64,000 bases of DNA, from NCBI GenBank assembly GCA_044892505.1, contig CM097882.1, forward strand, positions 499,596,001-499,660,000. The letters are read 5' to 3'. Shown piece by piece: positions 52,601-64,000 of the stretch (position 1 is its first letter; the number at the start of each line of letters is the position of its first letter). Below the pieces are notes generated by a model. That model saw nothing but the letters and a program-made list of their open reading frames with translations, had not been told where the DNA came from and did no database searches. The translations under genes were made by a program, and so were the position numbers. Origin of the DNA: Schmidtea nova. Taxonomy: Eukaryota.

Positions 52601-53530
52601 AAATGGTGTCAGAAGTTACTACCCCTCTCCATTAACATTTATATTTTATATTATTTTATTTCCACCTCTATTACTTTTTCTATCCCTTCCCAAATGAGGG
52701 CGCTACAACCCTGGGCGGGACTAACCGTATTGAAGATGCATAGAAGCCACATCATAAGACCAACCGGTTTTTTAAACATTGAGAAGACGCAAGTATCACA
52801 CAAGTTTCTCTTCCGGTGTCCTAACAAGACTTCCGGATGGCAACCTCTGTGTCCAACGAAGTCACAATTGACCTCAATGACTTCATTGCTCCTATCAATT
52901 GGTGTCCCAAGAGAAACGCACCGCCATTTTTTTGTCAGGAAGTCCCAATCTGCGGCACATACCCCAGTCATCATCACCTATTTCGACATCGTCCCTCGTT
53001 TGACTGGAGGAATGCAAACTGACGATACTAACACAGACTGCGAAATCAGCCACATTCAACCGCCAACACAACAAACAACACCAGTTATTACCCCAATACC
53101 GTTTTTCCTAGACGGCGTTGGCTCCCACAAACGTGGTTCCTGGCATTAGAAGTGACTCCAACTTTTCTACCCACTCAATCTCAAGGACAGAAGTTTGGTG
53201 CACTCTTGTCCATGCTTTATTGTCCAAGTATTATTAAATTTATTTGTAAGATTACATAAAATTAAAAGCGGGGAAACAAAATTAAATTGATGAATCGGCA
53301 ACCACACCAAAAATCACAATACCAGTAATACCAAATACAACATTCCAAAATCATACATTGGATCTCGATATTTGGTGTTCCTCTACATTTCATTACCGAT
53401 CAAGGACCCCAATTCGAATCCAATCTTTTTAAACAACTTTCTGCACAACTAGGAATTAAACACCTGAGGACTAGTACCTACCACCCACAAACAAACGGAG
53501 CTGTCGAGCGGTTTCACCGCACACTCAAGA
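49680..53530 (+). pseudogene. Decayed Gypsy gag-pol
   Basis: gag PSSWFHIIEA and KFLYALPYHIQ. Protease ILGVDFL. RT SFRPCSDFRALH, STIDLAKAF, AYLEDIF, KCQLFKPRIRFLGH. RNase H QTDDTN. Integrase FGVPLHFITDQGPQFES...YHPQTNGAVERFHRTLK. Confidence 0.9.
52106..52588 (+). repeat. Inverted, internally deleted copy of the ankyrin cassette inserted in pol
   Basis: 52106-52430 = reverse complement of 54821-55143. 52431-52589 = reverse complement of 53591-53749. Third partial copy at 53226-53323. TCCG lies on both sides (52102-52105, 52589-52592). Confidence 0.9.
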
Positions 53531-53546
53531 CATCCCTCCGAATTCT

Positions 53547-54629
53547 TTAAACTTCAAAGAACTGGACAAAGGCCCTATAAAAAGCCCTATAAATCACATC
53601 AAGGTATTCTGATTTTTGGTGTGGTTGCCGATTCATCAATTTTATTTTTGTTTCCCCGCTTTTAATTTTATGTAATCTTAAAAATAAATTTAATAATACT
53701 TCGTGGTGTTCCGGTGGCCGAAGTTTGTGTTGCTTGGCAACTGCATTTGTGTACGGGGAATTGAAACTGTGAATTGAACTCTCATTTTGAATTTGAACTA
53801 CTGGACTATATTTGGAAATATTTATTTTTAAAATACACAGAACGTTGTATTTATTTGGCTCCAGGGAACGTACGTCGTAAGAGATTTTATCAATATTATA
53901 GTTGCCTGTCACTTTAATGTCATTGTTTAATAATTCTAATGAGGTAAATTGGAGCGTATTGGAATATTTATTATGGAATAAGACCATACAGTTTATGGAA
54001 ATAGAATGTCTGTATATAAATATTGTTCTTTCCGGGGATAATTTCAATTGAGACAGACACTGGGGAGTCGTTGCAACATAGTATGATTTTATCGACAAGT
54101 ATTTATTATTATCATCATTACAAATGATACAATAATCATCTTCTTTATCAGTAAGCTGTTTGAAGAATGTTGTGAACACTGTATCACCAGCAGAATTGGA
54201 GGAACAGAAATCCTGGTGCACAAACGAAAATATGTCAATGAGGGTTCTATTGGTTGTTATTATCGACAGATAAAGTGGAGTACTGATGGGTATTTCGCAA
54301 TCATTAATTGAGATCAGATTGCGCATCAGAATATATCTTACCATTCCTTCCTCCCCATCGATGACGGCGATATGCAGCCGATTAGAACCTGCTTTATATT
54401 CAGTCTGCGAGAAGTCATTTCTCTTCTCTGATATTTGTCTAATTTCTCCCACTGCTTTAGATAAGTCATGTTGCTCCAATTTATAAACTTTTTTAACCAT
54501 CAAATCGAAAAATTTAATTCTATTTTCAATGGCAGAGATCTCCAAAAGTAAATGACCACTTTGTGCAGTGAAGTCATTAATTGCTTTAGCTGGACAATTA
54601 GTAGCAAAATATCGGGAAAAATTGGTCAA
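53547..54629 (-). CDS. Intronless 360-aa protein with 2-3 divergent ankyrin repeats
   Basis: Uninterrupted ORF. GSNRLHIAVIDGEEGMVRYIL, STPLYLSII and NSAGDTVF follow ankyrin consensus spacing. C-terminal half unidentified. Confidence 0.65.
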   Translation of the reverse strand: MTNFSRYFATNCPAKAINDFTAQSGHLLLEISAIENRIKFFDLMVKKVYKLEQHDLSKAVGEIRQISEKRNDFSQTEYKAGSNRLHIAVIDGEEGMVRYILMRNLISINDCEIPISTPLYLSIITTNRTLIDIFSFVHQDFCSSNSAGDTVFTTFFKQLTDKEDDYCIICNDDNNKYLSIKSYYVATTPQCLSQLKLSPERTIFIYRHSISINCMVLFHNKYSNTLQFTSLELLNNDIKVTGNYNIDKISYDVRSLEPNKYNVLCILKINISKYSPVVQIQNESSIHSFNSPYTNAVAKQHKLRPPEHHEVLLNLFLRLHKIKSGETKIKLMNRQPHQKSEYLDVIYRAFYRAFVQFFEV

Positions 54630-55970
54630 GTATTATTAAATAGTGAGACAAATAATATCAAGTAACTAATGATATATTATAAATAATATCAAGTAACTAA
54701 TAAAATTCGTAAGCGTTAACTAATATATTTTTAAAATTTATTGTGCGCGGTATCCGCTAACATATTTTTTAAACAACTTTTTACAACTCATACTTTAATT
54801 TATAAAAATAACAAAATATTCAGTATTACAAAATTTTTACATAGATAATTACACCACATTAAATATAAATAAGACAAGGCATTAAATGATTATAACATCT
54901 CTAATCAAAGTATATAATATTATTATCAACAAACATATTAATTTATTTAATCAAAATTAGTAATTATTAATTCAAACAGACACAACTAAACACATACAGT
55001 TAAAAAAATATCCAAACATTACTAACGAGAGCTATTATGGTGTATAAAATATACAATGAAACAACAAAATACATCGACATAATAATAAAAACTTTAAAAC
55101 ACTCTTTGATTGAATGGACATGATGTGACAACAGAACATTACATAATTAAAAGGCCCGATAATTAATCCTCTTACGCTTCATTCTGTCCCCATACGCTCC
55201 GCGTTCTTCGGCGGGGCTATTGGAGTGCCTCTACTTTATGCATATTTATAATAAGCTAAATATACTAAATTATTATAATATACTAAATTATAAGAAACTA
55301 GGCTTTATCCCGTATGTATAAGAAAATACTTTTGTAAGCTGTAAAAAAAATGCAATCTCGAATAAATGGAATTAGTGAAAAGAAAATGCTCGGTTTGAAG
55401 AGATAAAAACTATTTCTTAAATAATAAAATTTTGTTATTCTTAATTACCGTGTATTTAGGAGTCACGATTCTAAACAATTTGGTTAGATAAATTTAAGCA
55501 TTAATACTTATTACATACTATATTCACCAAAACTCAATTTTACGATTACTTGACAAATAATTTTGATTTCAATTGGCTTGATTGTGTAAAAATTGCAAGT
55601 GGACCTCAGTCACTAAATATAATGTAATGGAAGACTTATAGATAAAATGATGATATTAATGAGTTAATTTTGTTAACTTTTTTATAAAAAAATACAATAC
55701 TTCTTTAATTGTTTCTACATTAATTTAATTTGATTATTTTTCTAAGGGCGGATATAGGTTGCTGAAAGAACTCTAGAGAAAGGTATTAGATATAATATCA
55801 TAAATGCAAACACAATTGTTCAAATTTTGAAAATTATAAAAACATGACTCAATCCACTATGAAAATAAAAGGCTCATATTATTACCCGATTTATTGAGCT
55901 GCAGTAAGCGTATCAAAAGTTATTTTAATTAATCAACAAAAACTGGATAAATAATTTATTAATAACAACG

Positions 55971-58757
55971 TCAAATAGGTAATGGTATTTTTGCGGCAAC
56001 CAGTGGTAAAATATCCTTGGTTTTCGATTTCCAATTAACTACATCTTTGCTGATTGGGCACCAATATTCCCCAAACCTCGGTTCCGCCATCACGCATCGG
56101 GTCATCACTTCTTCCTTTTGGCTTTCCGTTCCGTAAATGCTCTCCAACTTATACAGGTAGCCCCATGCATCGCCGAACAATTTCTCAACCTTAATAGTTT
56201 TCATCAACCAACTCCTAGCATTAGCGATTTGTCCTTGCTCCCAAAACACCTTCGCAGCCGCAAGCAGCACGTGTTCACTGTGTTCACATTTCGAAAGCGC
56301 ATCTCGTGACTTGGCTATCCTATTCTTCTTCGGCACGATATTGATGCTCTCCGCCCACAAAATCCCCGAATCCGGACAATGCTGCAACGCCCTTGACATT
56401 AAATTGGTCGCCAATTCCGCATTATTATCCCGCAACTCCAACCGAATCGATGCCAACCACAACTCGGGAATTTTCATATTTTTCGCTTTCGCTCTTTCCA
56501 GCGTATTTCTCGCCATGGAAACGCAGTTCAATTTCTCCTCCAAATTCGCCTGCAACGTCCAGAGCGCCACCGATTCCGGGTTTTTCAACGAGCCGTCTTT
56601 GTACGAGCCCAGCGCCAGCTTGAATTCCTGTTTCTGTTCCCTGACCTGCCCCAGCATCATCCACAGTTTGGGATATTTGGGAAATTTCTTTGTCGCTTCC
56701 AGTAGGAGATTTTCCGCCGAATCCAAGTTCCCTAAGCACCACTCGAGTCGCGCTGACTTCATCCAAACCCTATCGGTGCCGACATTCATTCTCGCCCTCT
56801 GTAGCAGCCTGTTAGCGCGGTCGAATTCATTGTTTTCCGATTCCAATTTCACAGCGGCCAACATAATCTCCTCGGAATTCGGATTGGCCGCGAATGCTCG
56901 ACTGAGCACATTCCTGGCACTCTCGACATCTCCGGCTTCCCATTTCGATTTCGCCGCCATCAGCCACAACACCTCCACCGTATCGCAATGCTCAACCGCC
57001 TGACTCAGTATTTTCTCATAGTTCTCCCTCGTTCCGTGTTCCTTTTCGAACGCCGCCGCCCGCTTCCAAATTCCCTTCTTTTTCGATAAATTCGAAATCG
57101 CGATCGAATAAATCGCCCTAGCGCACTCCAGACATCCGTGCTCCTCGCAGGCCTCCGCGTCCGCAAGCCACGTCCGCTTCCTGTCCTGCTCATCGACCCC
57201 TATGCTTACAACTCGCTGGATGATTTTCTGCGCGGTGACTTTGTTTCCCGACTTCTCCGCTTCTTCCGCGTCCTTTATCCACTCATCGCGATTGATTTCC
57301 ACCATGTTCGATTTCAGCACTTCAATCGCTCGTTGGATGAGTCTTTCGATTTTCTCGTCGTTGCCCTCGGCTTCCTCCAGCTTGCAAGCCGTAATCCAGA
57401 TCTGGCGATCGTTTGGTATTTTCTGTCGGGCTGTATTCAACACTGCTCGAGCTTCTGTGGGATTGTTCAGTTTAGCCAGCGCCAGCCACAATTCAACACT
57501 TGTCGGGCAGCACTGAACTGCTCCTTCCAGCAATTGCTTCGCTTCTTCGGGATCGTCTTCCAATTCGACACTCAATTTCCATAATTTCACCGAATCTGGA
57601 ATCACCGATAACGCTTTCCGGTAGACAATTCGTTTCGCTTTCAAAGTTTCCTCTAAGTTAGCTCCAGCCACCCAAAGTGAAACGGAATTCGGAACGTGCT
57701 TAATTGCTTTTGATGCAACGCTTTTCGCCTGTGAGATATTATCCACTCCACCGTACTGTTTCATTATTCGGATCGCTTCTAGCCACATTTCTTCACTTTC
57801 CGGGCAATTTTCACAGCCTTTCATTACCAGTTGTTTCGCTTCGTGGATTTTTGAGAAATGTTCCTCGAATCTCACAATTGATATCCAACCGCTGACTTTG
57901 TGAGGATTTGTATCGGTCATAGATTTCAATAGCAATCGACTCTTTTTAATGTCAGCTACTTCACTTCCGCTGGGATTCATGCTCATTTGGGGTAGCATTG
58001 ATTGTAAATCCGTTAAATAACCCTTTGGATCTATAACTGTCTGTCCATTGACGCTATCAGAAACCCGACTCAATTGGCTGTCCATTAGCAGAGTTCGTGC
58101 CTTTCCAATACGTTGCATATCGATATTATCCATTGGTGTTTGTAATCCATTTCCAGTTGTTGTTGATGACATTCGAGGATCTATTACATTCATTTGGTTG
58201 TCTTGATATTCTTTTGCAATCAAACTATCCGGCTTTGGTACATACAAATCTGGTCGGGGATTTCGTTGTTTTCGGTTGCGAGAATCTCCGACTTCGGGGA
58301 TGTTTTTCCATTCGTCGAATGAAACATTTTTTAGTTCACGTTTCAAATCCACGAAATTCTGTTGGATTTTCGGTCGTTTTCGGCGATAATTTTCGATTTC
58401 TTTCTGTTCACGGATTTCTCGATAAGCTTTTCTTCTTTCATCCATATGCTTGTCAATGTTTTCATAGATCGTGTCGGCTTCAATGTCGTCTTCTTCGTAT
58501 GGATCTTTCGAGCAAATGTTACCACCGTAACCGCTGAACTCATCATAGTTTGAGTCGTTTAGATTTTCATTGTCTTCGTCTTCCCTTGTGCGTTTATGTT
58601 GAAGATGTCTTTCATCTGGAACATCAGTGTCATCTCTTGCTGGACCGATATCGGATCTAGTTGTGAAACCCGTTGCTCCACGGCCCATTCCAGCCACATA
58701 GCCAGATGGGGCTGGAATTCCTAGAAATTCTTTTCGCTTTTTTGTAATAAGATTCAT
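55971..58757 (-). CDS. PRPF6: Pre-mRNA processing factor 6 (U5 snRNP 102 kDa), 928 aa, intronless
   Basis: N-terminal [53 protein letters not shown], a long HAT/TPR array and C-terminal [12 protein letters not shown]. Confidence 0.98.
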
Positions 58758-59578
58758 TTTAACAGCAACTTAAAATTACTCACTCTTTCAGTAAATGTTA
58801 AATTAATAAAAATAATTATAATTATAGAAATTATTAAAACAAGAATAATTATTATCACAAATTATAAATTAATTTCGCTATATTAATATAAATAAAAGAA
58901 ATTTTAAATTTTAATAACTTCAAAAGTTACTCATATATTCAATGTCATTAACATCCTTGATATGGACCAAATTTTATCTTTTTCTAATTTTCAGAAATTT
59001 TTAATGTAATCATACATTTAAAATAAAGAGTTTCTCATTTACCATACCAGATTTCATAAATTTAAGTACAACAGGCCTAATTTTATATACGTATTCTCAA
59101 TAATATTTTTTTGATTTTTAAATAATTTTTTAATGTAATTTTTAAGTTAATTTATTTTATTTAAATGTAACAAGCTGTTATTTTGTTGACTTGGTGGGTT
59201 GTTGACAACCAAGATGATCTTGACATTTCCATTTCTCATGTCAACAACTCATCACATAAAACATTAGCTAACTATTTTGTTGCCCGCTACAAAGTAACGT
59301 TGGTAATGCTACAAATGGATGGATATTCGCAATTAGTGAGCTTCATAAAAAACAATTCAGGACTATGATTGACCGAATATCGCAGTGAGTTCAGGGGCAA
59401 TCGATGGAAGGTTCTTTACTTATTTTGTCCCTTACTCCAGCTATATTGTACATCTATTTTTAAGATTTTAATAAAGATTAAGGTAAAGCTAGTTTAATAA
59501 TTTTCTTATTAATTAATTAACAAACAATATTAACTTATAATGTCAATACAAATTTATATCAAATTTATTTTATATCCC

Positions 59579-61438: not shown

Positions 61439-64000
61439 CAGGGCCGGATTAAGCAGTTTTGACGCCCTAAGCCAAAAGAATTTCGAGGCCCTCCATGAAA
61501 AATATAAACCCAACAGTTTGTTGTATAAAGTAAAGTATTCCAAAGAATAAAAAAAATTTATTGGATTACTTGCTTTCGAGATTTTACTAATGCAAAATCA
61601 TCGATGATATCATCAAATGTTAATGATCGTAGCACTTCATGCTCGATTGATAAAAGACTTAATGACGCTAGTCTTTCTTGAGCCATTGTGCATCGCAATT
61701 CATCCTTAATACTCTTCAACTTTGAGAATGATCGTTCTCTTGAACAGTTTGTCAGCATTAGGCAGAGAAAAATGCGCAGAAGAACTTCGATGTTGGGGAA
61801 GGCACACTGAATTCCGTCCTGTATAATGATGGCGTACATCTTTTGATGCGTCAGCATCGTCACTTTCTTACTTTCTGCATGCAACAAAATGAAAGATAAA
61901 GATAGGGAAAATAAAAAAAATGTCGAGAAACTGCAAAAATCAAAGCATATTTAAACAATTTACCAGCATTCATGATGACAGAAGAAGTGTGGCTTCGTGC
62001 TTTCACATGCTGATGAAACTGCTCAAGTTCTGCAGCCAGGTTATTAGGTTATTGTCAATGTCACCTGAGTAGACGTTCACCAAATTCATCACACATGCAT
62101 CCCGTTGATTTTTAGGAAGGTCAAGTTGCGTTATAAAATCGAATTCAGAGGCCACCTTTTTGTACACTCTGGCTCTTACTTGTAGATTTGTAGAAAGGGC
62201 ATCAACGATGGGCAGAAAAGCAGTGAAACGAAACTTATCTCTAGGGGAGAAATGATGCTCGGGTGCGTCCCCATCAATTGACTGTTGCTTTCTAATACGC
62301 ACTCGTTTTGCTGCGCAGCGATATACCACCCCAGGTAAACGGTCTTTCGCATTGTTCTCATATTTGTCAAACTGGTCGTGAACATTCGCCACATATTGCT
62401 GTAGTGACTCATAGAGACCCGCACAAGTGCTGAGAGACACCTTCTCCGCCTGTAAATGGAGAGGACTGAGAGGTAAACAGACATAAATGATTTTCAATTA
62501 TTTTCTATATTTATTCAATAGTATTCCCACAACATAAATACATGTAGTGTTTTACTTGTGTCATGAAAGCGCTGAAGGACCTCATCCCAAAACTCCAGCA
62601 TCAGCGAAAACTCGAGTTCTTGCATCTTCTCGCTAAGACTCTTTGCCTGCAGTCTTGCGTCTCCTTTCTCGTTCCTGTCTTCATGAATGGCATCCAGGGT
62701 GTCTATAATCAGGGAATACCCTTGTTTCACCGCAGAAATGGCATTGGCGTGGGCTTCCCATCGCGTGTCTGAAAGGCACTTCACAACAGCTGAATCATGT
62801 AAATGAGAAACAAGGATTGCCCAACGTTGTGTAGAAGCCGAGAAGAATGTCTATATGTTCTGTACAATACTGAAGAAGTTGACTGCTTCCAGACAGCAGT
62901 CAGCGGCTGCGCGTCCAACAAGGTTCAAAGAGTGGACTGCACACAGAATGAACCTGACAAGCGGGTTTTTCTGCAAGATCATTTCTTGCATCCCTTTGTA
63001 GCGCCCGGATATATTCGCAGCATTGTCATAAGATTGACCACAACAGTTGGAAAAATCAATTTCGCAGCCATCGCAAAGATGGTTTAAGACCAATGTGGTT
63101 AGGCCTTCTCCTGTGTGATTTTCCATTGCGAGAAATGTCAGGAATCGTTCCACTGGTACTCCATCAGCCGGTGACACATACCGCAAAACGACTGTCAATT
63201 GGTCAACATGCGATCTGTCGGGTGTTGAATCCACAGACAGGGAGAAGTATCGTGCCTGCTTCAACTCAGCCAGGATGCATTTTAAAACCTTATTCGCCAT
63301 TAAGCAGATCATCTCTTCACAAATTGTTTTTGAGAGGTATGATGGATTTCCATAAAGGGGTCAAATTCCGCTACCAGTTCCATGATTTCTAAGTAATTGC
63401 CATTGTTTGGCAATCCAAAAGTCTCAGTGGTTCCATGGAATGCCAAACCGCGCTCAGTAAGAGTTTGTATGACAGCAACCACCCGCCGTAGCACATTTCT
63501 CCAGTAGGCTGCTTCATTCCAACATTGCTCCTCGGGTCTACTGTTAATCCCGCCACCACGACGACGCATAATGTAGGCCAGCATCGCACGTCGATGATCT
63601 TGTCCATGCTCGTGTAGCTGTAGAACAGTAAGATTTCTCCAGTTACTGAACCCACTGTTGGCCAGTGCTGCTGACGAGTGACTGAGTAGCTTGCAGACAA
63701 AGCAATATACACTTCCAGTTGATGGAGAATAAATGAGCCACTCACGTGGATACTTCTCACCATTGACTTTTACTGACTGGAAGACGCCAAGTGAGCATAA
63801 GCGACCTCGATTACCAAACTGACGGCGAGATGCTTCGAAAGGACCTTGTCAGTTTTGACATTCTTGTGGGCCTTTGTTAATCCAATACAAAATGTCCTCT
63901 TTAAATAGCACACCCCATTGTCCAGGATCGGTAACTGGAGTTGCTTTTGTCAAGGACATTGACGACTCCACAGATGTTGTTTCAAGTGCAGATTGAGTCA
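61439..64000 (-). mobile_element. hAT (Tip100 / ZMYM1-like) transposase element, frameshifted, runs off the window
   Basis: Terminus CAGGGCCGGATTAAG. Motifs YFSLSVDSTPDRSHVDQL, GQSYDNAANISG, CAVHSLNL, LSDTRWEAH and TNCSRERSFSKLKSIKDELRCTMAQERL. Confidence 0.92.

Follow-up and report, generated by a model that had tools for sequence, protein, structure and literature searches.

Acutely transforming retroviruses carry gag-onc fusions that are internal and usually disable replication. In Ty1, the start of Gag lies inside U5 and only a few codons belong to the long terminal repeat (LTR), and MMTV sag and HIV nef are U3 ORFs, each of them a single conserved gene with its own stop. The Ty3/Gypsy family described here, referred to as the inner family, resembles the gag-onc retroviruses in the fusion of host mRNA to gag, and Ty1, MMTV sag, and HIV nef in having a coding frame that overlaps the LTR.

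LTR-mediated retroposition in animals has been described by Tan et al. (2016; PMC5131818), and according to the accessible part of that article the retrocopies of Drosophila always replaced part of the internal ORFs and gave non-autonomous elements. The inner family shares with the cases in that part, and with maize Bs1, spliced mRNA fragments, junction microhomology, the joining of several parent genes, sense orientation, and re-mobilization. It differs from the Drosophila cases in that the captures lie inside the LTR and are copied to both ends and to solo LTRs, in that they are layered and in frame with gag, and in that gag-pol is still under purifying selection. Among other sources, each accessible in part, PMC13317346 lists maize Bs1 and a piece of Wis-2 that entered a BARE LTR, PMC13534243 describes telomeric LINEs with captures of 140–235 bp acting via piRNAs, and PMC6431247 reports ankyrin repeats in the giant Burro polyprotein; the accessible parts of PMC11410931 and PMC8532177 describe no such LTRs.

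Burro/GYPSM1, a planarian Gypsy, is similar to the inner family in that its Gag-containing polyprotein bears host-like domains, ankyrin included (PMC6431247, accessible part). However, Burro is about 30 kb long and has an env-like region and a polyprotein of 4,900 aa, in whose internal part the domains lie, whereas the inner family is about 7 kb long, has no env-sized ORF, and carries host pieces that are recent, swappable, neutral, and located in the LTR. The two were set apart on the basis of this partial description.

Template-switch capture by LTR elements is known; the novelty here is that the captured mRNA sits in the LTR itself, in a family with selection still acting on gag-pol. A literature search of openly accessible main texts revealed no description of mRNAs captured repeatedly and in frame within the LTRs of such a family, and the family may already be listed in a repeat library such as Repbase.

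Layout of the window

The window, i.e., the whole analyzed stretch of 64,000 nucleotides, contains a stop-free run of 361 codons on the minus strand (53547–54632). An open frame of this length is expected by chance from base composition at about 2e-12 per start, and the open frame of more than 1 kb noted in the preliminary description is real, as are the stops that break the adjacent gag-pol. That the ORF belongs to a separate unit was first suspected because two long inverted repeats link 52106–52589 to 53591–55143 in a self-comparison. The features of the region are as follows.

48280–48499, plus strand: outer, older Gypsy element, 5′ LTR remnant (48280–48485) and primer-binding site (PBS; 48487–48499); 87% identical to 55226–55469
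49690–52105, plus strand: broken gag-pol of the outer element, a different family; 36–41% amino acid identity to the inner pol; RVT_1 8e-14
52106–52602, plus strand: inner-family LTR with an internal deletion (nt 1–325 joined to the 3′ end), inverted relative to 53591–55143; self-comparison
52604–52615, plus strand: inner-family PBS, which follows the LTR end in 29 distinct loci
52616–53217, plus strand: open leader and gag start of the inner family, read in the frame of the LTR cassette; 90–97% amino acid identity to the L069 gag frame
53226–53323, plus strand: third piece of the inner LTR 3′ region, 98 nt; self-comparison
53355–53577, plus strand: integrase fragment of the inner family; 99.1% identical to natural element L061
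53591–55143, minus strand: LTR of the inner family, ankyrin type (A), beginning with TG at 55143 and truncated by 13 nt at the 3′ tip; over nt 1–1571, 96.4% identity to L008, a natural solo LTR
53591–54137, minus strand: older cassette layers together with the conserved 3′ end of the LTR, all within the one open frame; breakpoints nested at LTR nt 1010, 1191, 1399, and 1461
54138–54152, minus strand: 15-nt microhomology at the 3′ capture junction; the 15 nt span an exon junction in the spliced host mRNA and are also present in the B-type LTR
54138–54700, minus strand: captured 5′ part of a host ankyrin-gene mRNA, with a short leader, start-codon position, joined exons, and in-frame internal jump between two ankyrin repeats; the host exons have AG/GT borders, and the introns are absent here
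54228–54407, minus strand: about 1.5 ankyrin repeats (ORF residues 76–135); PDB phmmer and Ank_2 in relative P0003
54717–54723, minus strand: TTAGTTA, an initiator-like motif directly before the host-derived sequence; in 13 of 15 LTR representatives
54724–55143, minus strand: 5′ non-coding LTR portion (likely U3), toward the end of which lies a GC-rich GCGG..CCGC motif; first 300–440 nt common to the LTR types
55226–55469, plus strand: 3′ LTR remnant of the outer element, the 3′ LTR of the preliminary description; self-comparison

The inner element in the window runs in the order deleted LTR, PBS, gag start, LTR scrap, integrase scrap, and inverted A-type LTR. We interpret this arrangement as a rearranged, broken copy of the inner family nested in an older Gypsy element. 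The AT-rich DNA reported upstream of the ORF, before the 3′ LTR, is the 5′ part of the ORF's own LTR. The GCGG..CCGC motif was found in 14 of 15 LTR representatives, and TTAGTTA, which we take to resemble an Inr, is likely the transcription start. For the layers at 53591–54137, neither Pfam nor the Atlas gave a match to any source.

The inverted LTR pair within 52106–55143 is 99.7% alike over nt 1–325, with deleted gag and integrase pieces between its members. The outer element is without its RNase H and integrase half, and 52106–55143 represents a local rearrangement without a target-site duplication (TSD).

State of the open frame and its ankyrin likeness

The ORF as called is an ordinary broken copy, and the family behind it is the finding. 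The ORF had been described as intact, but relative to its sister copies it has lost the start codon (54631–54633) and 14 nt near 54612. The LTR that bears it ends 13 nt before the full LTR end, and the last residues and stop codon of the ORF are supplied by the antisense of the integrase fragment at 53355–53577.

The proposed ankyrin identity was retained in a reduced form. Pfam analysis of the whole 361-codon ORF gave no ankyrin match at E ≤ 1, and the sole Pfam match of the N-terminal piece of sister copy L008 was Ank_3 (E = 0.065). In a phmmer search of PDB, DARPins matched ORF residues 76–135 (best E 6.9e-6, summed over repeats), and P0003, a natural relative with 67% identity, is a clear ankyrin protein (Ank_2, 1.6e-17). 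The likeness is real but small, covering about 1.5 repeats rather than the several repeats above profile threshold sought in an ankyrin accessory protein of the viral or endosymbiont type, and the protein did not show purifying selection. An NCBIfam search with the whole ORF gave no match. Protein searches with the whole ORF, and with the ankyrin piece against longer proteins, gave no match, and the ESM Atlas gave no usable match for the C-terminal half; such blanks prove neither novelty nor absence. AlphaFold2 modeling of a sister copy, with no alignment given, yielded a pLDDT of 33, too low for the model to be informative.

The inner Ty3/Gypsy family

A genome search yielded 488 candidates, of which 40 were scored, and each of the 40 covered most of the query at 87–100%. 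For the first 15 copies, the flanking DNA was unrelated and, as judged by translations, consisted of Gypsy pol, Polinton-like, and hAT-like DNA. The A-type unit is about 1,580 bp long, starts with TG, ends with CATCAAA, and is flanked by a 5-bp TSD in 13 of 14 copies. The occurrence of the unit in unrelated flanks with its own TSDs, together with the 36–41% likeness of the two pols, ruled out the earlier assignment of the ORF to the flanking Gypsy as its cargo. Among 79 two-ended LTRs, 54 had a perfect TSD, 10 were of the 3′ type (following the same 5 bases), 7 were of the 5′ type (PBS next), and 8 were other, with 25 further LTR ends that had no start in the available stretch left out of the 79. 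A 23-mer of the LTR end had 344 exact matches in the genome versus 0 for the reversed control, and the family comprises at least 344 LTR ends, mostly solo.

Full elements of about 7 kb consist of LTR, PBS, gag, pol (in the -1 frame, with RT, RNase H, and integrase), and LTR, and have an internal region of about 5 kb. The PBS, TGGTGTCAGAAG, lies one base past the LTR end in 29 loci. LTR pairs in seven single elements were 97.3–99.6% alike, with one cassette common to both members. The inner gag matched DUF7041 (E = 1e-5, below the curated cut-off), and the nearest solved structure to the inner RT was that of Ty3 (E = 2e-84). A search with the leader and gag against proteins of 480–1528 aa gave no match, which proves neither novelty nor absence. 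In 11 of 16 representatives, an AATAAA precedes the LTR end by 69 nt. A cassette-less LTR variant of 440 bp has also transposed (L064).

The elements show the direct repeats around gag-pol, TSDs and defined termini, PBS, and RT-RNase H-integrase order with a Ty3-like RT by which Ty3/Gypsy LTRs are recognized. In common with Ty3/Gypsy elements (Metaviridae) that have a DUF7041-type Gag, they have the order PR-RT-RH-IN, a Ty3-like RT, a PBS, and TSDs. Unlike in those elements, the LTR is 1.4–2.3 kb long and mostly coding, its termini are TG...AA instead of TG...CA, and the gag frame begins about 1.0–1.8 kb inside it. From these comparisons, we identify the ORF as the coding middle of the 1.58-kb LTR of a second, young Ty3/Gypsy family of about 7 kb.

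Solo LTRs with other cassettes (L053, L058, and L056) sit in or beside elements of the same family, and L054 and L060 are apparent tandem elements with one common LTR.

Swappable cassettes and their host mRNA sources

The LTR types share the first 300–440 nt and the last 124 nt, and their middles, here called cassettes, formed 16 clusters among 77 long LTRs. Type A accounted for 33 of these 77, and 12 of the 33 were open for 354 codons. Other cassettes corresponded to MED23 (Pfam, 1e-30), a second ankyrin gene (Ank_2, 1e-9), PSME4 (E = 5e-11), and B-Raf (E = 4e-4). Still others presumably resemble adenylate cyclase, RIIa/DPY30, and ARM proteins, labels for which Pfam and PDB gave no confirmation.

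A protein search in which all 57 candidates were scored revealed, besides LTR copies, four colinear host matches at G000:C2:129.806–129.847 Mb. The four matches are phase-0 exons with AG/GT borders, are joined exactly in the LTR, and are preceded in the host by a short leader exon ending in ATG. Two ankyrin repeats that lie 37 kb apart in the host gene are joined in the LTR by a jump that preserves the frame and falls on about 6 nt of microhomology. Junction microhomology was examined in the ankyrin capture only, where it amounted to about 8 nt at the 5′ junction and to 15 nt, common to the spliced mRNA and an older B-type LTR, at the 3′ junction. The MED23 cassette was present in about 33 intron-free copies versus one host locus with four exons. 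Both mapped captures, those of the ankyrin gene and MED23, start at LTR nt ~440 with a host leader and ATG, directly after the conserved GCGG..CCGC motif and TTAGTTA, and captures were 85–95% identical to host exons.

As in retrocopies, the parent introns were absent for both mapped donors, and microhomology was found at the fusion points of the ankyrin capture. In contrast to the retrocopies in PMC5131818, the capture did not replace internal ORFs but lies in the LTR, and gag-pol is present and under purifying selection. Judging from the exon joints, the ankyrin piece is a spliced copy of the host gene, and its intron-containing donor rules out a viral or bacterial origin. In place of the host-manipulating, virus-like ankyrin cargo that had been suggested, we found that the LTR of another, nested family holds a recent spliced piece of an ordinary ankyrin gene of the host, an outcome that the preliminary description had itself named as speaking against its proposal.

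Cassette A is layered, with other types joining at LTR nt 1010, 1191, 1399, and 1461. Because these breakpoints are common to other cassette types, the C-terminal half, which had been thought to be a possible undescribed domain, is likely a stack of older layers and not one domain.

One frame from the cassette into gag

In intact cassettes, no stop occurs before the LTR end, and the frame runs via the LTR end and the PBS into gag. Beyond the LTR end, 5 of the 29 PBS-bearing loci stayed open for 467–475 codons, up to where gag ends, and in two loci the open frame began at the cassette ATG and likewise reached the gag end. At least ten cassette types had a natural copy open from the ATG to the LTR end. 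No complete A-type cassette was seen directly before a PBS among the A-type loci examined. L053, a B/A chimera, is a 5′ LTR with a frame open across the PBS, and two A-type 3′ LTRs are joined to the family's pol or integrase tail; the family as a whole, this chimera, and these two LTRs suggest that type A is likely fused to Gag as well. The same frame contains AUGs at the gag-core start and 9 codons ahead of the EYL motif, which is conserved at the LTR end.

The frame was interrupted in part of the copies. In the adenylate-cyclase-like cassette, 11 of 18 copies, including both LTRs of L071, were out of frame at a T run, and in another cassette 10 of 47 copies were shifted out of frame at an A run. 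These common 1-nt shifts in homopolymer runs may reflect assembly error, slippage, or spread without an open frame. Frame concordance between representatives was 16/25, a value not used as evidence, and the nine discordant pairs all involved three copies with private frameshifts.

Selection on the open frame

Variants were classed per codon column as singletons, which are mostly post-insertion, or as shared by at least three copies and therefore passed through replication. Over 12 pooled segments, which overlap somewhat and contain related copies that are not independent, stops were created by 0 of 352 shared variants versus 35 of 960 singletons (P = 2e-5) and versus 63 of 1633 in the other five frames (P = 6e-6). 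Variants found in exactly two copies created stops in 7 of 239 cases. Frameshifts in cassette A were singletons in 28 of 29 cases.

The ratio of nonsynonymous to synonymous changes (N:S) was then compared between shared and singleton variants. Both classes were similar in cassette A (2.27 vs 2.48, P = 0.75), in its ankyrin part (2.40 vs 2.61), and in ten cassette segments pooled and summed by hand (227/93 vs 559/220). The ratio of shared variants was far lower than that of singletons in the gag core (0.11 vs 1.64, P < 2e-6) and in pol (0.19 and 0.27 vs 1.45 and 1.49, P < 2e-6). The 131-codon leader between the PBS and the gag core had 0 stops among 28 shared variants and a neutral N:S (1.55 vs 2.00). 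The host gene differed from all A copies by 10 N and 2 S changes in 172 codons. The Raf cassette had a low shared N:S (2/5 vs 28/9, P = 0.025), one of about ten tests, and the PSME4 cassette, with too few copies, was left out. The comparison of copies that had been recommended as a check on selection revealed that amino acids were not conserved. The expectation that the ORF is younger than the element or under selection was borne out: the surrounding element is the older of the two, and the ORF is under some selection. Because stops are purged while amino acids drift, translation as a Gag extension is likely, and selection likely keeps the frame open for translation of Gag, not for the cassette protein.

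Neighboring features

Between the PBS and gag of the outer Gypsy, a CAF1/CNOT7-like deadenylase fragment was found at 48500–49400 (frame 48772–49257, plus strand; Pfam CAF1, E = 9e-4, below the cut-off). The CAF1-like region matched all 40 scored places of 246 candidates at 77–100%, and its sister L155 has a frame of 246 codons there, without a Pfam match. By this resemblance, we regard the outer Gypsy as a second family with captured host-like cargo. L004 (G000:C1:515.298–515.302 Mb), considered as a full element and rejected, is an A-type solo LTR with a TSD inside another element that has a gag-like frame. We take the latter to carry a SUMO-like N-terminus on that frame and upstream frames resembling SAPS/PP6R and filamin, and it is possibly a third capture-prone family.

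A single-frame, intron-less gene for splicing factor PRP6 (932 codons; PRP1_N, 2e-51) lies at 55971–58769 on the minus strand, 500 bp from the outer LTR. Units of about 28, 83, and 110 nt make up a degenerate tandem array at 36875–38140. Long inverted repeats of 95–99% (671–1275 and 14513–15110; 19015–20162) are likely DNA transposons with terminal inverted repeats or MITEs. From their translations, 39798–41263 and 61558–63848 (minus strand) are presumably broken hAT-like transposase remnants, and 45991–47200 (plus strand) is presumably another Gypsy RT remnant.

Proposed mechanism and alternatives

We consider it probable that spliced host mRNAs have repeatedly contributed their 5′ parts to the LTR of a young Ty3/Gypsy family, with RT template switching as the likely route, and that Gag likely carries the translated copies as a passenger extension at its N-terminus. 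The direct observations bearing on this proposal are the LTR identity, the host mRNA origin, the junction microhomology, the single frame through cassette, PBS, and gag, the purging of stops, and the neutral amino acid change. Transcription would start near LTR nt 430, and the cassette would therefore lie in R/U5. During minus-strand strong-stop synthesis, RT would switch at a microhomology onto a co-packaged mRNA, run to near its 5′ end, and jump back, as the junctions suggest; the resulting new outer layer would then be copied to both LTRs. The captured AUG would be the first AUG of the genomic RNA, i.e., the start of Gag, so that only captures in frame with gag would still give Gag and Pol in cis and keep spreading. 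Such a filter would act on the frame and not on the residues, consistent with the selection pattern. Counting against the model are the 1-nt shifts common to several copies in homopolymer runs, the transposition of the cassette-less variant, and the low shared N:S of the Raf cassette.

The frame might instead be open for reasons at the RNA level, such as the avoidance of nonsense-mediated decay or of an inhibitory upstream ORF, with most Gag made from an internal AUG or a spliced RNA and little fusion protein. The AUGs 9 codons before the EYL motif and at the gag-core start would suit this explanation, and cassette-less and frameshifted lineages exist. However, the 131-codon leader also has 0/28 shared stops with neutral N:S, and scanning from an open upstream AUG would yield the fusion anyway, and we regard this explanation as improbable.

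Slightly less probable still is that the cassette proteins are functional accessory factors, as the preliminary description supposed, namely truncated host regulators (the Ras-binding region of Raf, the N-termini of MED23 and PSME4) that are freed from Gag by protease and act on the host. Burro elements do carry ankyrin and apoptosis domains (PMC6431247, accessible part), many of the captured fronts come from signaling or regulatory proteins in their native frame, and the shared N:S of the Raf cassette is low. Against this, the shared N:S is neutral in cassette A and in the ten pooled segments, the host gene comparison gives 10 N versus 2 S, the internal jump has cut the ankyrin array to about 1.5 repeats, and junctions fall inside domains.

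The AATAAA that 11 of 16 representatives have close to the LTR end, 69 nt from it, would permit a long transcribed 3′ LTR, and a U3 gene expressed from it, like MMTV sag or HIV nef, could then be imagined; no stop occurs inside the LTR, however, the frame continues into gag, and it begins with host 5′ leaders right after the conserved initiator-like motif, which makes such a gene very unlikely. To our knowledge, no identified donor is a piRNA-pathway gene, which counts against the captured pieces being small-RNA decoys against host genes with an incidental open frame. A decoy role has a precedent in Drosophila telomeric elements (PMC13534243, accessible part) and would fit the 85–95% identity to host exons, but it leaves the purging of stops unexplained and is just as unlikely as the U3 gene.

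A more speculative and rather doubtful reading is that the capture of mRNA 5′ ends serves as a strategy, in which swapped host leaders, start codons, and N-terminal domains lend Gag tissue-specific translation or targeting. Each of the hundreds of solo LTRs might then act as a portable module, with a promoter, an AUG, and a stop-less frame, by which shuffled host domains are fused to any downstream sequence, and together they would form a standing factory of chimeric genes.

Implications

The results call for caution against taking intact transposon ORFs for functional genes, and in annotation these LTRs will look like additional MED23, Raf, PSME4, and ankyrin genes. Selection that preserves an open frame could be told apart here from selection on a protein, gag-pol serving as the internal control. 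The family represents gene capture at no cost to the element: the cargo lies in the LTR, gag-pol survives, and the captures are amplified and left behind as solo LTRs. The cassette layers record successive template switches and co-packaged host mRNAs, and the cell types in which the elements replicate thereby become testable.
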